This document shows positions 6,817 to 62,213 of a DNA stretch of 64,000 nucleotides, in pieces (positions within the stretch are counted from its first letter, which is position 1; each line of letters opens with the position of its first letter). The position numbers and the translations under genes were made by a program. Below the pieces are notes generated by a model, which saw only the letters and a program-made list of their open reading frames with translations, searched no databases and was not told the origin of the DNA. Source of the DNA: Terriglobia bacterium (GTDB lineage Bacteria > Acidobacteriota > Terriglobia > JAJPHL01 > JAPKYU01); assembly GCA_965218055.1 (NCBI GenBank), contig CBDCKA010000001.1, forward strand, positions 840,953 to 904,952. The letters are read 5' to 3'.

Positions 6817-7137
6817 AAGAGTTGGCGCTTCTGCGGAGTTGATGGCCAACCCGCCCGCTGCCTTGCCCCACTCGAAACCCCAATAGGAACCACCGGTCGG
6901 TAGTGGGTCAGTTTCCGATAAGGGCGTTACATATCCAGTGGGCGGCGTGGCAGCATAGGTAAACACTAACCGACTAGTGGGGACCTATCTGCCGAATCCG
7001 AGCCAAATTCTTCCGTTTTAGAAACTTGCACTGCCAGTGAGCCCCCGACTAGCTTCTTCTCAGGCATTCTCAACAGACCCGCCTCGCGTTGACTTGCCTG
7101 CGGGTGGGGCGTAGGATGGGTGGCAAGAGGGAGCCTT

Positions 7138-8013
7138 ATGCGACTCACGCGCGAAGCAATCCTGATAATCCTTTTGTTAACCCCGGTTGTAGTCAGGGCT
7201 GGGGACATCAACAAAGACCTGTTTGAAGCGGCAAGGAAAGGGAACACCGACACCGTGCAGGCGTTGCTCGCCGGAGGAGCGGACGTCAATGCCAAAAGCA
7301 ACTCCAGAGGCGCGGGGAGCCGGGCCTTGAGGTACGCGGCAAGCGGAGGCCACGCCGACGCCGTGAAGGCCTTGCTCGATGCGGGCGCAGACGTCAATGT
7401 CAAAAGCAGGGGCGGATGGACGGCCTTGATGCGCGCGGCAGACAAAGGCCACGCCGACGCCGTGCAAGCCTTGCTCGACGGCGGCGCAGACGTCAATGCC
7501 AAAAACGAGTCTTTAGAGACGGCCTTGATGCGCGCGGCAGGCGGAGGCGTCACGATGCGCCTGCGCCCGTTCACCGCAGGCCACACCCACGTCGTGCAGG
7601 CCTTGCTCGACGCGGGCGCCGGCGTGAATGCCATAAGCAGGGGCAAAGTGACGGCCTTAAGCTACGCGGCAGGCATAGGCCACACCGACGCCGTGAAGGC
7701 CTTGCTCGACGCGGGCGCAGACGTCAATGCCGGGCACTCTACTGGGACGACGGCCTTGATGGACGCGGCACACGAAGGCCGCACCGACGCCGTGCAGGCC
7801 TTGCTCGACGGCGGCGCAGACGTCAACGCCGGGCCATTTACGGCCTTGATGCGCGCGGCAGCCATAGGCCACGCCCCCACCGTGCAGGCCTTGCTCGACG
7901 CGGGCGCAGACGTCAATGCCAAAGGCAAGTTGGGGACGGCCTTGCGGGTGGCGCAGAAGTATGGGCGAACCGAAGTGGTTGAAATCCTCAGGAAGGCCGG
8001 AGCTAGGAAATAG
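7138..8013 (+). CDS. secreted ankyrin-repeat protein (about 8 ANK repeats)
   Basis: ORF 7120..8013 starts with GTG. ATG at 7138 is preceded by GAGGGA and gives the signal peptide MRLTREAILIILLLTPVVVRA. Then comes the repeated ALLAGGADVNAK..G.TALM.AA..GH.D.V.ALLDAGADVNA ankyrin consensus. Confidence 0.85.
   Translation: MRLTREAILIILLLTPVVVRAGDINKDLFEAARKGNTDTVQALLAGGADVNAKSNSRGAGSRALRYAASGGHADAVKALLDAGADVNVKSRGGWTALMRAADKGHADAVQALLDGGADVNAKNESLETALMRAAGGGVTMRLRPFTAGHTHVVQALLDAGAGVNAISRGKVTALSYAAGIGHTDAVKALLDAGADVNAGHSTGTTALMDAAHEGRTDAVQALLDGGADVNAGPFTALMRAAAIGHAPTVQALLDAGADVNAKGKLGTALRVAQKYGRTEVVEILRKAGARK
7180..7990. repeat. approximately 99-bp tandem coding repeats (ankyrin modules)
   Basis: gtgcaggccttgctcgacg(c/g)gggcgcagacgtcaatgcc... 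recurs about every 99 bp. This also generates long spurious antisense ORFs (6966..7646, 7416..7982, 7662..7928). Confidence 0.7.
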
Positions 8014-21913: not shown

Positions 21914-22036
21914 CACCGCTCCTGAGCGTTGCCAGCAGGTAGGCGGCAGGCCGAGGTTTGTCGCGATGTAGTGCCGCCCTTCAGGGCGGCAAGGATCGAG
22001 CGGCGGACGCCGGCACTCGGGGGCTTGGAAGTTACT

Positions 22037-23077
22037 ATGAAAGTGGAAGCAGGAATTTTGGGCGCCACCGGCATTGTGGGGCAACAACTGGTCCGCCTGC
22101 TGGAGAATCATCCCTGGTTTGAGTTGAAGTGGGTGGCAGCTTCGGGCCGCTCCGCGGGCCGCAGCTACGCCGAAGCCGCCTCCTGGCGCCTGTCGTCGCC
22201 CATGCCCTCGGCGGTCCGCAACTTGCGGGTGGAGGAGTGCCGCCCCGGCCGGGGGCCGCGCCTGGTCTTCTCGGGGTTGGACACCTCGGCGGCGCGCGAA
22301 ATCGAGCCAGAATTTGCCCGCTGCGGTCATGTCGTCGTCAGCAACGCCAGCAGTTTCCGCATGGAACAGGATGTGCCCCTGCTGGTGCCGGAGATCAACG
22401 CCGACCATCTCGGGCTGCTTGCCGCCCAAGAGCCGCGCGGCTGGAAAGGAAAGCTAGTCACCAACCCCAATTGCTCGGCCATCACCCTAACGATGGCGCT
22501 GGCGCCGCTGGAGCGGGCTTTTGGTTTGAAGCGCGTGCTGGTGACGACCTTGCAGGCCGTTTCCGGCGCCGGCTACCCTGGCGTGGCGTCGCTCGACATC
22601 CTGGGGAACGTGATCCCTTTCATTCGCAACGAGGAAGAAAAGATCGAGGAGGAAACGCGTAAGATTCTCGGCCAGTTGCGCAACGGCAAGGTGGAAGAGG
22701 CGGCAATCACTTTGAGCGTGCAGACCAACCGTGTGGCGGTGCTCGATGGCCACACCGAAAGCGTCTCGGTGGAACTGCGACAGGCCGCCGCCCTGGAGGA
22801 TCTGAAGCAAGCCTGGCGCCAGTTCCGGGGCGTGCCTCAGGACCGCCTCTTACCGAGCGCGCCGGTACATCCGGTGGTGGTGATGGAGGAGCCCGACCGG
22901 CCGCAGCCGCGCCTGGACGCCGAACGCGAGGCCGGGATGGCTACCTTCGTCGGACGCGCCCGTCCCTGTCCGGTGCTCGACTACAAGTTCATCGCGCTAG
23001 GGCACAACACCGTGCGTGGCGCTGCCGGCGCAGCCGTGTTGAATGCCGAGCTGATGAACTCCGAAGGACTTTTCTAA
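22037..23077 (+). CDS. asd: aspartate-semialdehyde dehydrogenase
   Basis: Within ORF 21929..23077. Start MKVEAGILGATGIVGQQL (Rossmann motif); Asd catalytic-domain motifs present. Confidence 0.9.
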   Translation: MKVEAGILGATGIVGQQLVRLLENHPWFELKWVAASGRSAGRSYAEAASWRLSSPMPSAVRNLRVEECRPGRGPRLVFSGLDTSAAREIEPEFARCGHVVVSNASSFRMEQDVPLLVPEINADHLGLLAAQEPRGWKGKLVTNPNCSAITLTMALAPLERAFGLKRVLVTTLQAVSGAGYPGVASLDILGNVIPFIRNEEEKIEEETRKILGQLRNGKVEEAAITLSVQTNRVAVLDGHTESVSVELRQAAALEDLKQAWRQFRGVPQDRLLPSAPVHPVVVMEEPDRPQPRLDAEREAGMATFVGRARPCPVLDYKFIALGHNTVRGAAGAAVLNAELMNSEGLF

Positions 23078-23087
23078 TTGGCGATCG

Positions 23088-23175
23088 GGTCATTGACCCA
23101 TTGACGACCCATTGACGGCCCATTGACGATTGTTCTATTTTTCCTCTTCAATCCTCAATGATTCAATCGTCAATG
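23088..23175. promoter_or_regulatory. array of ATTGACG direct repeats plus an inverted ATTGAsGATTG pair upstream of lysC
   Basis: tCATTGACccATTGACGAcccATTGACGgcccATTGACGATTG has 4 direct copies at about 10-bp phase. The block caatcctcaatgattcaatcgtcaatg lies 20 bp before the lysC ATG. A near-identical 26-mer occurs at 61681..61706. Confidence 0.4.
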
Positions 23176-23189
23176 AACAAATACTCTCC

Positions 23190-24563
23190 ATGATTGTCCT
23201 GAAATTCGGTGGAACCTCGGTAGCGAACGCCGAGGCCATCGCGCGCGTGGCCGACATTGTGGCGGGGCGCATGGCGGAGCGTCCGGTGGTGGTGGTCTCG
23301 GCCATGGGGAAGACCACTGACCGGCTGCTGGAGCTGGCCACCACCGCAGTCGAGGGGAACCGCAAGCGGGTCGTGGGGCTGCTCGGCGACCTCCGGGATT
23401 TCCACGGCGGCGAGGCACGCAAGCTGGTTCCGCCCGCACGCCGCGTGGCGCTGGAAACCTGCCTGGAAGAGCACTTCCAGGAACTCTCCGAGCTGGCCAA
23501 GGGACTCTCGGTGCTGGGAGAATTGACCCCGCGCGCCACCGATGCCATTTCGAGCTACGGCGAGCGGCTGTCTTCGTTGATCGTTAGCCAGGCCTTCGAG
23601 CACCGCGGTCTGCCGGCCGCGCTGCTCGATTCTCGCCGCTACATCGTCACCAACCAGCACCACGCGCAGGCAGCGCCGCTCTACGACCGAACCGAACAGC
23701 GGCTGCGCCAGGCGGTGCCGGCCCTGCTGGCCGAAGGCTCGATCCCGGTCATGGGCGGCTTCATTGCCGCCACCGCTCAGGGCGTCACCACGACTTTGGG
23801 CCGAGGCGGTTCCGATTTTACGGCCTCGATCGTTGGGGCAGCGCTCGAGGCCAAGCGCATCGAGATCTGGACCGACGTGGACGGCATGCTCACTGCCGAT
23901 CCGACACTGTACCGCGGGGCCCGCCGGGTGAAGATGATTTCCTTCGAGGAGGCCAGCGAGCTGGCTTACTTCGGCGCCAAGGTGCTCCACCCCAGTACCC
24001 TTCTTCCCGCCGTCGAGAAACGGATCTCGGTCTCGATCCTGAACTCGCGCAGACCGCAGGCGCCGGGCACCGTGATCACCGGGCAGGCACCCAGGACGGA
24101 AAACATTTTCAAGTCCATCGCCTGCAAGAAAAACATCACCATCGTGGACATCGGCTCGGCGCGAATGCTGATGGCCTACGGATTCCTGCGGGCCATCTTC
24201 GAGGTCTTCGAGCGCTACCAGACGCCGGTGGACATGGTGTCCACCAGCGAAGTCAGCGTGTCGCTGACGGTGGACAACCCGAGTCGCCTGCCGGAGATTG
24301 TTGCCGATCTCGGCCGCGTTGCCCACGTTTCTTACGAGGGAGGCAAAGCCATCGTCTGCCTGGTGGGCGACAACATCAAGTTCACCCCGGGCGTCGCCGG
24401 GAAAGTCTTCAAGGCGATCGAGAAGGTCAACGTATGCATGATCTCGCAGGGTGCCTCGGTACTGAACATCAGCTTTGTGGTGGACGAGGACCGGCTGAAG
24501 GAGGTAGTCTCCCGCCTGCACCGGACCTTCTTCCGCAAAGTGGACCCCAGAGTTTTTGAATAA
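23190..24563 (+). CDS. lysC: aspartate kinase
   Basis: Within ORF 23130..24563. Start MIVLKFGGTSV; ACT domains at the C-terminus. Confidence 0.9.
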   Translation: MIVLKFGGTSVANAEAIARVADIVAGRMAERPVVVVSAMGKTTDRLLELATTAVEGNRKRVVGLLGDLRDFHGGEARKLVPPARRVALETCLEEHFQELSELAKGLSVLGELTPRATDAISSYGERLSSLIVSQAFEHRGLPAALLDSRRYIVTNQHHAQAAPLYDRTEQRLRQAVPALLAEGSIPVMGGFIAATAQGVTTTLGRGGSDFTASIVGAALEAKRIEIWTDVDGMLTADPTLYRGARRVKMISFEEASELAYFGAKVLHPSTLLPAVEKRISVSILNSRRPQAPGTVITGQAPRTENIFKSIACKKNITIVDIGSARMLMAYGFLRAIFEVFERYQTPVDMVSTSEVSVSLTVDNPSRLPEIVADLGRVAHVSYEGGKAIVCLVGDNIKFTPGVAGKVFKAIEKVNVCMISQGASVLNISFVVDEDRLKEVVSRLHRTFFRKVDPRVFE

Positions 24564-51574: not shown

Positions 51575-51904
51575 CTATCCGGGGAGAAATTTTTGCGGAT
51601 CGGCCATCATACGACCCAACATTCTGCCTAACTGTTCATACCCGGTGACGATGCGCCTATGCAGATCCTGCGATAAGTAGCCGCAATCACGGGCGAAGTC
51701 GAGCCACACTTGCGTTTCGGTTGCCTCCGCGTCGGCGTCAGCAAGCTTACTCACAAACATACTCGGATATTGCCGCTTTCTGAAGCCTTCGGCGAGGTTC
51801 GCGGCAACGCTGCGTGAGGAGCGGCGTATTTGATCGGTCAAGGAGAAACGCTCATCCCTGGGGAATACCTTAGCCGGAATTTCCATTTTGAGCTTCCCCT
51901 TCAC
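51575..51904 (-). CDS. four-helix-bundle protein (23S rRNA intervening-sequence protein / Avd family), possibly N-terminally truncated
   Basis: 109 aa. ...FPRDERFSLTDQIRRSSRSVAANLAEGFRKRQ...WLDFARDCGYL matches the PF05635 core. The usual N-terminal helix (about 30 aa) is absent; an in-frame stop lies immediately upstream. Confidence 0.75.
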   Translation of the reverse strand: MKGKLKMEIPAKVFPRDERFSLTDQIRRSSRSVAANLAEGFRKRQYPSMFVSKLADADAEATETQVWLDFARDCGYLSQDLHRRIVTGYEQLGRMLGRMMADPQKFLPG

Positions 51905-60754: not shown

Positions 60755-61202
60755 ATTTACAGGTCTCGAACGTGGCGCGTTGCTCTCCGCTGGCGCCTTT
60801 CCAGAACACCGTCAGGGTCACCAGCACCAGGGGCGTCAGCGCCGCTTGTCGTTCGCCGGCGGCTGCACCGGCAGGATTCCAGCGCCGAATTTCCGCCTCC
60901 CAGCGAAACGTTTCATCCCACCGGCCAGCAACCCGGCCGGGCACTAGCGTCTGCTCTATGAGCAAACGGTTCAATTGCGAGCGACCCACCAGTGTCGCTT
61001 TCTCGTAAGTTTCCGTGCGCGCCAGGTTGCGCAGCGAGCCGGAAAGCCCGCTCATCAACGCAGCCACAGCAATGCCCAACAGCGCCATGGCCACCAACAC
61101 TTCCAGCAGCGTGAACCCATGGGTTGCAGGTTGCCGGAGTTGGAAGGAGGCTCTTCCCCCGCCGCTGCTTCCAACATCCCGAATCGCAAGTCCAACACCC
61201 AT
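60729..61202 (-). CDS. gspI: T2SS minor pseudopilin GspI
   Basis: Within ORF 60729..61214. Start at the second Met (TGATG overlap with the gspH stop). Prepilin motif ...THG|FTLLEVLVAMALLGIA, with an unusually long leader (about 29 aa). Confidence 0.65.
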   Translation of the reverse strand: MGVGLAIRDVGSSGGGRASFQLRQPATHGFTLLEVLVAMALLGIAVAALMSGLSGSLRNLARTETYEKATLVGRSQLNRLLIEQTLVPGRVAGRWDETFRWEAEIRRWNPAGAAAGERQAALTPLVLVTLTVFWKGASGEQRATFETCKYEPLLPAQ

Positions 61203-61681
61203 CAGCGCTCCCACTCCACGCGGGGCAGCGCCGTCAGCACATCGAACTTCACCGTGACGGCACGGCCGCGGGCATTGATCAGCCGCAGTCCCACTCGGGG
61301 CATCCCCCCGTTTGGCGGGAAGATAAAGGTGCGCATACGGCTTGGCTCGACCACGATTTCTGGAGGCAACTGCCAGCTCCGACGGTAGGACGGCTCCCCG
61401 CTGGCTGTGGCCCCTTCCAGGTCCTCCAGCTCGACCCGGCGCCGTTCCGAATCCACCGTCACCTGGCAGACGGTCTGCTGACGCAAGGCCCGCACGCGGG
61501 CGTAGCGGAAGGTGTTCGCCAGCCGGTCGGCGGCCGACTTCAGCCGCAACGTATCCAGACCGGCGGTCATGCTCGGGAACACGATGGCTCCCAGCACGCC
61601 GACGATCGTCAGCACGACCACCATCTCCAGCAGCGTGATGCCGCGACAGCGCCCCCGGCGAAACTGTTGACCGCTGCTCAC
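61202..61681 (-). CDS. gspH: T2SS pseudopilin GspH
   Basis: Within ORF 61202..61831. No in-frame ATG exists before the prepilin motif, so the likely start is GTG at 61681: VSSGQQFRRGRCRG|ITLLEMVVVLTIVGVLGAIVFP. Confidence 0.65.
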   Translation of the reverse strand: MSSGQQFRRGRCRGITLLEMVVVLTIVGVLGAIVFPSMTAGLDTLRLKSAADRLANTFRYARVRALRQQTVCQVTVDSERRRVELEDLEGATASGEPSYRRSWQLPPEIVVEPSRMRTFIFPPNGGMPRVGLRLINARGRAVTVKFDVLTALPRVEWER

Positions 61682-61715
61682 AATCGTCAATGATTCAATC
61701 CTCAATTCCCCACTC

Positions 61716-62213
61716 CTAGTGTTTCCAGCTCGCCACATCGCTGTCTTCGCCCTCTCCGCCTTCTCTCCCGTCAGCACCGTGGGAAAGGATGTCGGGTTCT
61801 TCGCCGTGCTCGCCCGGGTACCGGTAGACATAGGGCTGCCCCCAGGGATCGTCCGGGATATCCTGGGGCAGGTAAGGACCGTCCCAGCGCTCCACTTCCG
61901 CGGGTTTGACCCGGAGAGCTTCGAGTCCCTGCTCGGTGGTGGGAAACCTCCCAGTGTCCAGCTTGTAAATGCCCAGGGCGGTCATGAAGCCGTTCATTTG
62001 TTCCCGAGTTGCGGTCTGCTTGGCAGCGCTGACTTTCTTCCACATGCGCGGCAGCACCAGCGCGCTGAACAGGGCGATGATGGTCACCACCACCAGCAGT
62101 TCAATCAGCGTGACGCCGCGCTCACCGGCCTGGCCGCCGAGGCGCGGAGGCACCTTGGAAAGGTTTCTTGCCGGTACGGTCGCGACTTCACCCTCAGATT
62201 GGTTTTTCTTCAT
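61716..62213 (-). CDS. gspG: T2SS major pseudopilin GspG
   Basis: 165 aa. ...ERG|VTLIELLVVVTIIALFSALVLP prepilin motif and GspG signature DPWGQPYVY. The leader is long (about 32 aa). Confidence 0.85.
   Translation of the reverse strand: MKKNQSEGEVATVPARNLSKVPPRLGGQAGERGVTLIELLVVVTIIALFSALVLPRMWKKVSAAKQTATREQMNGFMTALGIYKLDTGRFPTTEQGLEALRVKPAEVERWDGPYLPQDIPDDPWGQPYVYRYPGEHGEEPDILSHGADGREGGEGEDSDVASWKH

Follow-up and report, generated by a model that had tools for sequence, protein, structure and literature searches.

Near-identical sequences beside lysC and gspH in a Terriglobia bacterium as probable members of a dispersed intergenic repeat family

Why would the leader of a lysine biosynthesis gene and a junction inside a type II secretion operon carry almost the same 26 nucleotides? 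The question arises in a 64,000-nt stretch of the Terriglobia bacterium contig CBDCKA010000001.1 (hereafter the window, meaning the whole stretch that was analysed). A preliminary description of this DNA, made without database searches, had noted a phased ATTGACG array upstream of lysC and a matching block between gspG and gspH, and had offered three explanations: a shared transcription-factor site, a tiny repeat element or an RNA-RNA pairing site. Our analysis supports the second. Both sites are probably members of one dispersed, non-coding intergenic repeat family with ATTGA-type units in one arm and TCAAT-type units in the other, and the window copies are probably derivatives, lacking an open reading frame (ORF), of a cassette resembling the intervening sequences (IVS) of 23S rRNA. 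At asd-lysC, a complete ORF-less miniature fills the spacer; the copy at the gspG-gspH junction is a half element, a lone arm. The near-identity of the 26-mers reflects common ancestry within the family and not a link between lysine synthesis and type II secretion.

Two sites and the family to which they belong

The window contains the pattern common to the two 26-mers (CAATCSTCAATGATTCAATCSTCAAT) just two times, at 23149-23174 and at 61681-61706, in each case on the plus strand and with C and G positions exchanged between the copies. None was found in 100 shuffles of the window even with three mismatches permitted, which places the resemblance far beyond chance. Doublets of the form ATTGAN{2,3}ATTGA are restricted to the lysC-leader and gsp sites (six in the window, 0.05 expected), as are clusters of at least three ATTG/CAAT cores (three seen vs 0.115 in shuffles). 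Five further ATTGACG words on the minus strand at 7284-7917 were considered and rejected as an element: they come from an ankyrin-repeat gene (7093-8013, plus strand), whose repeated Asp-Val-Asn-Ala codons generate the word.

At lysC, the phased array of the preliminary description was recovered, with ATTGAC starting at 23092, 23100, 23111 and 23122 (spacings of 8, 11 and 11 nt) and three occurrences of CCCATTGACG at an exact 11-nt spacing. The dimensions of the leader needed revision. Its length, given earlier as 110 bp, came close to the measured asd-lysC spacer of 112 nt (TAA at 23075-23077, ATG at 23190), and the 26-mer block, which had been placed 20 bp before the ATG, in fact ends 14 nt before it. 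The first base of the array, 23077, is also the final one of the asd stop codon, and the array opens with the two degenerate units ATTGGCG and ATCGGGTC. A perfect 12-nt inverted repeat (CATTGACGATTG at 23121-23132 and CAATCGTCAATG at 23164-23175) links the two arms, further pairings exist, and the whole element is predicted to fold with -29.5 kcal/mol (z = -2.8). Its 5' arm is atypical in containing two 11-nt units, which are peculiar to the source lineage; a 14-mer of the same arm, ATCGGGTCATTGAC, also occurs in copies from Planctomycetota (locus L040) and Binatia (L061). The second site falls at the junction of gspG and a gspH-like pseudopilin gene, in a type II secretion operon read from the minus strand. 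Here the arm begins 10 nt after the gspG stop codon (TAG, 61716-61718), and a core-cluster search of the window found no partner arm near it.

Both the 3' arm at lysC and the gsp arm exactly match the 20-mer core CAATCNTCAATGATTCAATC, which was scanned against one genome per GTDB species. The scan returned 58 stretches, compared with about 4 expected by chance for equiprobable bases (2 x 596e9 / 4^19) and far fewer in high-GC genomes. Roughly 45 of the 58 have further units on both sides and are genuine copies, while about 10 look like chance, lying within ORFs and lacking further units. In a metagenome collection, the same core was found in 95 stretches. By record title, the copies belong to at least six phyla: Acidobacteriota, Planctomycetota, Binatia, Nitrospirota, Armatimonadota and the Ignavibacteria/Bacteroidota/Chlorobi group. 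Many of the Acidobacteriota records are metagenome-assembled genomes (MAGs), one of which gives at least 12 contigs, and the locus GC of family copies ranges from 0.40 to 0.70. BLAST searches of phage and plasmid collections gave no match to a complete element. The single viral-contig match proved to be chance coding sequence; it is one of six loci (L079, L082, L091, L105, L109 and L068; five metagenome, one viral) that represent one low-GC (~25%) phage-like coding sequence and were excluded. Rfam contained no family matching the window or any of 16 loci at the gathering score, and its E-value mode returned only generic microRNA (miRNA)-like hairpins.

The elements share the layout 5'-(ATTGAnn)~5 – spacer – (nnTCAAT)~5-3', or consist of single arms. 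Units measure 7 nt (146) or 8 nt (161), usually in alternation, and are built on an ATTG(A) core, the commonest being ATTGACG (111) and ATTGAATC (62). At least four cores are present in 144 elements, 75 of them two-armed and 69 one-armed. Complete elements span about 75-160 nt with a median of 96 nt, and their inter-arm spacers (4-76 nt) are unrelated in sequence between genomes. Arm order is nearly invariant, with ATTGA before TCAAT in 65 complete elements and the reverse in 1; the window copy has the common polarity. The number of cores per uninterrupted chain peaks sharply at five (82 chains) and falls at six (7 chains). Certain complete copies are predicted to be very strong hairpins, L026 among them (-68.9 kcal/mol, z = -9.9).

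Genomic placement and gene starts

All copies seen lie between protein-coding genes, and none in helix 25 or 45 of 23S rRNA. Their neighbours are unrelated housekeeping genes, among them gap, icd, mfd and those for APS kinase, a deoxynucleoside kinase and an aminotransferase. Complete elements are found in 36 co-directional, 9 convergent and 6 divergent spacers, roughly the proportions that elements placed at random between genes would show. Where single arms stand between co-directional genes, their orientation is modestly biased (22 ATTGA-sense vs 9 TCAAT-sense). The first unit starts at a median of 5 nt past the upstream stop codon, which in 12 cases is itself the TGA of the first ATTGA, and the next ATG or GTG follows at a median of 45 nt, often behind a normal Shine-Dalgarno sequence. 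On some contigs a copy occupies every spacer; in soil contigs such as L143 (830-3380), L060 (1264-3720) and L104, nearly every spacer contains one (four in 3.5 kb), so that the genomes of those organisms should each have thousands of copies.

Tandem Ser/Thr kinase genes in one Bacteroidota MAG each stand behind a very long array, of as many as 25 units, in which ATTGAGGG and ATTGAAGG are frequent; after these arrays (L042 1-130 and 5470-5830; L024 1100-1900) comes a short TCAAT/AATGA arm, immediately ahead of the ATG. An association of the family with Ser/Thr kinases was considered and dropped, as the signal came mostly from the tandem paralogues of this MAG.

At the gsp half copy, GAGGA stands 8 nt before an in-frame TTG (61689-61691), and a GTG is present at 61677-61679. 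It thus appears that GspH took a new ribosome-binding site and start codon, together with leader residues, from the half element. The same ATTGAGGATTG recurs in four Armatimonadota genomes, where an ATG follows it at 5 nt. The arm ATTGAATCATTGACGATTGAGGATTG is identical in four Armatimonadota species genomes (L023, L031, L032 and L050) and in L073, L133 and L150. In these loci the arm lies 5 nt before the ATG of one signal-peptide protein, and a neighbouring GC-rich hairpin varies.

The lysC gene follows its element without a Shine-Dalgarno sequence, in the window and in the relatives L002, L003 and L164 alike; the 14 nt before its ATG (23176-23189) read aacaaatactctcc. Gene order around lysC is conserved (M20 peptidase, asd, lysC, dapB, dapA, dapD). 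LysC homologues place the window in the Acidobacteriota, with Bryobacteraceae-like matches at ~65% identity; an exact look-up of the window LysC gave no match, and LysC comparisons were made via the representative P0001, which is 100% identical to the window LysC. Rfam detected no rRNA in the window. The coordinates of both sites and of their flanking genes are collected in Table 1.

Each unit offers a TTG and a TGA, and the ATTGA strand has one open frame; ORF callers are misled as a result, and gene starts beside elements are likely mis-annotated. Mechanical ORF calls in the window do begin inside the arms, for example a 477-aa 'lysC' starting from the TTG at 23130 (23130-24563); the ORF call at the gsp site is 61202-61831.

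Table 1. Positions in the window of the two element copies and the genes beside them.
Feature	Coordinates	Strand	Composition or remark
5' arm of complete ORF-less element	23077..23132	+	units ATTGGCG, ATCGGGTC, ATTGACCC, ATTGACGACCC, ATTGACGGCCC, ATTGACG, ATTG
Pyrimidine-rich 16-nt spacer/loop between arms	23133..23148	+	ttctatttttcctctt
3' arm (contains the 26-mer first described)	23149..23175	+	CAATCCT CAATGATT CAATCGT CAATG
Single-arm (half) copy	61681..61706	-	gene-strand reading ATTGAGG ATTGAATC ATTGACG ATTG
asd, aspartate-semialdehyde dehydrogenase, upstream cistron	21929..23077	+	Pfam Semialdhyde_dh in orthologous loci; element abuts stop codon
lysC, lysine-sensitive aspartokinase type, downstream cistron	23190..24563	+	no Shine-Dalgarno sequence
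gspH-like pseudopilin gene	61202..61691	-	first codons and probable ribosome-binding site from half element

Turnover among close relatives

Comparing the asd-lysC spacer across seven genomes, ranked by the identity of their LysC to that of the window, showed that ATTGA elements occupy five of them and that unit variants fill the other two. The element of L001 (LysC 100% identical) matches that of the window save for one base. A shortened, degraded copy is present in L002 (88%), a textbook element that begins at the stop codon and leaves 4 nt to the ATG in L164 (84%), and a small copy in L165 (81%). The variant units are AATCTGCG, repeated three times, in L003 (86%) and ATTGCGG/ATTTCGG in L166 (72%). 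The motif upstream of lysC to which the preliminary description had drawn attention is therefore found in relatives, and the site is persistently occupied, yet neither sequence nor stem is conserved. Persistence combined with such fast turnover of sequence and hairpin strength is the behaviour of a repeat akin to repetitive extragenic palindromic (REP) sequences, and not of a conserved operator or a riboswitch.

The two variant spacers have features of their own. In L003 (9787-10000), three copies of (C/A)AATCTGCG are accompanied by GGATTTCAC-GGATTT and a 13-nt hairpin (GATGAACACAGAT/ATCTGTGTTCATC) in a convergent layout. The ATTGCGG/ATTTCGG array of L166 (1409-1500) has the same convergent layout as the ATTGA elements.

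This comparison also bears on whether the asd-lysC copy has been recruited as a control element specific to lysC, either through a promoter with TTGACG as its -35 hexamer or through an attenuator with alternative pairings of CATTGACG against CGTCAATG/CCTCAATG (two copies). We judge this improbable. The leader does contain one promoter-like match, the sole one, in which TTGACG at 23112 is followed after 18 nt by TATTTT at 23136-23141, a -10-like hexamer inside the spacer, where 0.1 such matches are expected. Several alternative inverted-repeat pairings can be drawn, and an element of this type persists at the spacer over LysC identities of 72-100%. A lysine riboswitch is absent, as the preliminary description had stated: Rfam gave no match at the gathering score in the window, and at E <= 10 over 22950-23350 only chance miRNA and small nucleolar RNA (snoRNA) matches. 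Against recruitment, L002, L164 and L165 lack both the -10-like hexamer and the 11-nt phasing, hairpin strength ranges from strong to none, and the same element type stands beside dozens of unrelated genes. Control through the leader is also not required, because LysC is of the allosterically lysine-sensitive type. A broader version, in which TTGACG words form arrays of -35 promoter elements, was rejected, since relatives do not preserve the -10-like hexamer and the GC content of many spacers is high.

The type II secretion operon behaves differently. Three relatives with GspH proteins 88%, 83% and 75% identical to that of the window (L062, L064 and L065) have no ATTGA arm at gspG-gspH, and relative to them the window has had everything from the gspG stop to the CRG-ITLLE codons replaced, including the prepilin leader peptide. 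A small complete element is found between gspE and gspF in L062, L063 and L064; in the window and L065, that position is occupied by a shared GC-rich spacer unrelated to the element. The gspG-gspH junction seems to be a hot spot for various small elements. Within their GspH leader-peptide codons, L062 (4001-4050) and L064 (4040-4080) contain the sequence ACAGGCC-gcga-GGCCTGT, and the 113-nt gspG-gspH spacer of L065 (9888-10000) contains several inverted repeats.

With this turnover in view, two of the readings offered for the 26-mers lose their footing. Two near-identical sequences within 64 kb, each near a gene start, could suggest that one transcription factor uses both as operators and so controls lysine biosynthesis together with type II secretion. 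However, the gspG-gspH copy is missing from relatives whose GspH is 83-88% identical and which keep the lysC copy, having a gspE-gspF copy instead, and in six phyla the same sequence adjoins unrelated genes, whether the spacer is co-directional, convergent or divergent, without forming a coherent regulon. We therefore consider a shared operator extremely unlikely. Pairing in trans between the lysC and gsp mRNAs over the 24/26 stretch, which would couple their stability or translation, is hardly credible either. The complementarity itself is real, and both stretches lie in probable untranslated regions beside start codons; it arises because the transcripts carry opposite arms of one family, TCAAT-type in one and ATTGA-type in the other, so that any pair of such transcripts would match equally well. 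Moreover, the lysC 3' arm has a partner in cis only 16 nt away, and the gsp copy is specific to the lineage, its site not being conserved. The tempting regulatory link between lysine biosynthesis and type II secretion is thus removed as false, and what fills the lysC leader is a repeat element, not a region dedicated to control.

Long forms with a PF05635 gene and relation to known systems

Among 148 ORFs flanking the elements, a Pfam scan returned PF05635 as the top family, with six matches. PF05635 is the four-helix-bundle '23S rRNA intervening sequence protein' (S23p) family, which is related to Avd, the accessory protein of diversity-generating retroelements. To our knowledge, this large family with solved structures has no known function outside such retroelements. 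The six ORFs, each of ~125 aa, all lie between a 5' ATTGA arm and a 3' TCAAT arm (L015, L018, L024, L072, L110 and L114); L143 provides a seventh arm-enclosed PF05635 ORF, and L167 and L168 are long forms of the same kind. In the orthologous spacer downstream of nuoK, L015 and L018 contain arms and ORF, whereas L011 retains the same arms and the first 14 codons and lacks ~300 nt of the ORF. L011 is therefore a direct example of an ORF-less derivative that arose by internal deletion.

A search with the L015 protein alone yielded 3803 homologues at E <= 1e-10, named 'four helix bundle protein' in records from Ignavibacteriales, Chlorobiaceae, Acidobacteriota and Bacteroidota. When compared with the Ignavibacteriales query, cassette proteins of Acidobacteriota and Bacteroidota MAGs show 71-73% identity. 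As a test of prediction, two loci picked by their protein, P0203 (from an Acidobacteriota MAG) and P0195, were inspected, and in each the gene has (ATTGnnnn)n on its upstream side and (nnnnCAAT)n on its downstream side. Together they count as one extra independent site, because they represent one orthologous locus in two organisms. The closest solved structure is the PF05635 homologue 2RLD, whose PDB entry contains five chains. Searching the literature by element sequence returned primers and chance matches only, and searching by sequence and family name gave no description of the element or of its link to PF05635, with incomplete coverage that makes an earlier description possible.

The long form is reminiscent of the IVS found in the 23S rRNA of Leptospira, Coxiella burnetii and others. 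The C. burnetii IVS is a 428-nt selfish element in which an S23p (PF05635) ORF lies in the loop of an inverted-repeat stem that is excised by RNase III (PMC4990558). Its 5' arm contains, just before the ORF, three or four tandem GACAGAT heptamers, the number varying by strain (PMC4990558). The two systems thus have in common a PF05635 ORF in the loop, an inverted-repeat stem and tandem heptamers in the 5' arm, as well as a sporadic, horizontal-looking distribution and an ORF prone to decay (PMC4990558). They differ in location, as the ATTGA elements lie between protein-coding genes and not in helix 25/45 of 23S rRNA, in the repeated word, which is ATTGACG/ATTGAATC instead of GACAGAT, and in that the ATTGA elements are mostly ORF-less miniatures at high copy number. 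In the window copy, the stem-capable inverted repeats and the tandem units of the 5' arm are present, and the ORF and the rRNA location are absent. The variant word of the L003 asd-lysC spacer resembles the Coxiella heptamer.

As a population, the elements are also reminiscent of REP sequences and their assemblies, bacterial interspersed mosaic elements (BIMEs) and REP doublets forming hairpins (REPINs), including GTAG- and CGTC-tagged types. These are likewise short, extragenic, high-copy and often hairpin-forming; they occur mostly just past stop codons inside operons, with head-to-head dimers predominating, and related species have different families in one spacer (PMC3733652). The anatomy is distinct. 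Whereas REPs are single imperfect palindromes of 20-40 nt with 5-13-bp stems, short loops and a GTAG/CGTC tag (PMC3733652), ATTGA arms are arrays of 7/8-nt direct repeats set 4-76 nt apart. An assignment to the CGTC-tagged REPs was rejected on these grounds, since the CGTC in the unit CAATCGTCAAT lies in a paired arm and not in an unpaired tag (PMC3733652). The REP-associated tyrosine (Y1) transposase RAYT was absent from the 25 commonest families of the 148 flanking ORFs and from an all-against-all clustering, a survey of ~1.1 Mb and not of whole genomes.

[quoted passage not shown] Terminal inverted arms, a length of ~75-160 nt, non-coding and intergenic character and, at least once, internal deletion from an ORF-bearing form are shared. 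As differences from MITEs, no target-site duplication was seen, the arms are internally repetitive and the long form has no recognisable transposase; we know of no transposase activity for PF05635.

Two published groups of tandem repeats come closest in unit architecture. In Geobacter metallireducens, paired tandem repeats of classes 1-3 (GTTGCTYN x4, TCTCCGTS[Y] x3 and MTYCTGA x5) consist of three to five tandem 7-9-nt units paired with an opposite-strand set at variable distance (PMC2700814). They lie in spacers such as proB-proA and are species-specific, a sister species differing at the same spacer; unlike the ATTGA elements, they use other words, are described from one genome only and are read as sites for IHF/HU or a global regulator (PMC2700814). 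No report of a link between them and PF05635 is known, and no check of that paper was aimed at one. The TAACTGA heptamers of Beggiatoaceae, Cyanobacteria and Bacteroidetes are tandem, intergenic and TGA-containing, and are common to distant phyla without an evident transfer mechanism and with functionally unrelated downstream genes (PMC4679880). Most point forward and directly precede start codons without a Shine-Dalgarno sequence, and Bacteroidetes have long arrays (PMC4679880). In contrast to the ATTGA family, they are direct repeats only, with one inverted set reported, and have a different word; S23p and IVS are not mentioned in that paper (PMC4679880).

Several observations weigh against deriving the window copies from an IVS-like cassette. 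All loci were found via one exact 20-mer or as homologues of one cassette ORF, and the independent PF05635-bearing sites number only about five. The window copies themselves have no ORF, one possessing a 16-nt spacer and the other no second arm, and their link to the cassette is, as judged from the sequences, one of shared arms rather than of direct descent. Neither the 148 flanking ORFs nor their all-against-all clustering disclosed a transposase or other mobilising enzyme near any copy, and no target-site duplication is visible at the element borders. At both polymorphic type II secretion junctions the whole spacer has been exchanged, not simply interrupted. Hairpin strength is not kept at asd-lysC (z = -4.6, -2.8 and -0.3 in L164, the window and L002, respectively), and across the family an element's own arms pair barely better than arms borrowed from other elements (-25.6 vs -22.5 kcal/mol), the window copy being ordinary in this respect. 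A function as an RNA hairpin is uncertain for this last reason. Neither the 65:1 polarity nor the five-core arms are explained by hairpin thermodynamics; both point to a sequence-specific partner.

Such a partner is central to the alternative that the arrays are binding platforms for a conserved nucleic-acid-binding protein, and the window copies regulatory sites of a global network. If DNA is bound, a nucleoid protein or a global regulator would be a candidate, in line with what was suggested for the paired repeats of G. metallireducens; if RNA is bound, the suggestions made for the TAACTGA repeats apply, namely ribosomal protein S1, a cold-shock protein, CsrA or NusA; and the PF05635 pentamer itself is a further candidate. 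The core word is conserved across phyla while arm pairing is not specially kept, polarity is strict and the arms are quantised at five cores. This number is matched by the five chains of 2RLD and by the Xanthomonas S23p, a homopentameric toroid (PMC4990558). Also in keeping with a platform are the 22:9 excess of ATTGA-sense single arms, the published analogues, which suggest likewise (PMC2700814, PMC4679880), and the RNA sites of E. coli NusA, which need AUU (PMC2724277). Binding of UCAAU-like RNA by the KH domains of NusA was considered as a lead and set aside, its confirmed part being this AUU requirement. However, copies are gained and lost between close relatives within one operon, the neighbouring genes have no common function, and convergent spacers are occupied as often as in random intergenic placement. 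The 22:9 bias is modest and could be explained by avoidance of C-rich, G-poor untranslated RNA in sense transcripts. A binding platform thus stands as a candidate that we regard as unlikely.

We favour the origin of the window copies from a dispersed repeat family related to an IVS-like cassette. According to this model, the elements would spread as selfish or neutral DNA and change fast through unit slippage or conversion. Copies would be co-transcribed with the genes that flank them, as both window copies would be with their operons, and complete copies would fold into AU-rich stems. By analogy with IVS and REP sequences, such stems might be cut by RNase III or might protect the 3' end of the upstream cistron, here asd, and either outcome could uncouple asd from lysC expression. 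GspH would owe its ribosome-binding site and start codon, as well as its first residues, to co-option of the half copy. Three features lie beyond this explanation: a word that is kept across phyla, the strict polarity, and five-core arms that match a pentameric cargo protein.

A bolder proposal, which we put forward tentatively and with more doubt than confidence, is that the ATTGA elements and their PF05635 cargo constitute a previously unrecognised class of mobile or self-propagating cassette, in which the pentameric protein reads the five-unit arms with one unit per subunit. If so, the PF05635 protein would promote spread of the element or control the processing of transcripts that carry it, and thousands of orphan 'four helix bundle protein' genes would be cargo of a single element type. 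ORF-bearing 23S rRNA IVS might then be of the same type, possibly together with the TAACTGA and Geobacter-class heptamer arrays.

PF05635 genes gain a genomic context, residing inside inverted arrays of short repeats and leaving ORF-less miniatures behind, and PF05635 becomes a concrete candidate for the binder of such heptamer arrays. The puzzle of the ORF-bearing 23S rRNA IVS is tied to a far larger population of intergenic elements in at least six phyla. Elements of this kind also rewrite ribosome-binding sites, start codons and N-termini, as for GspH.

The window has a PF05635, or bAvd-like, gene of its own at 51575-51886 on the minus strand (E = 7.8e-24), whose product is ~32% identical to the cassette ORFs. 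It was rejected as part of an element, as no inverted arms surround it. About 60 nt upstream of its ATG stands GATTTGCGATTGACACG, which consists of two ATTGA-like units.

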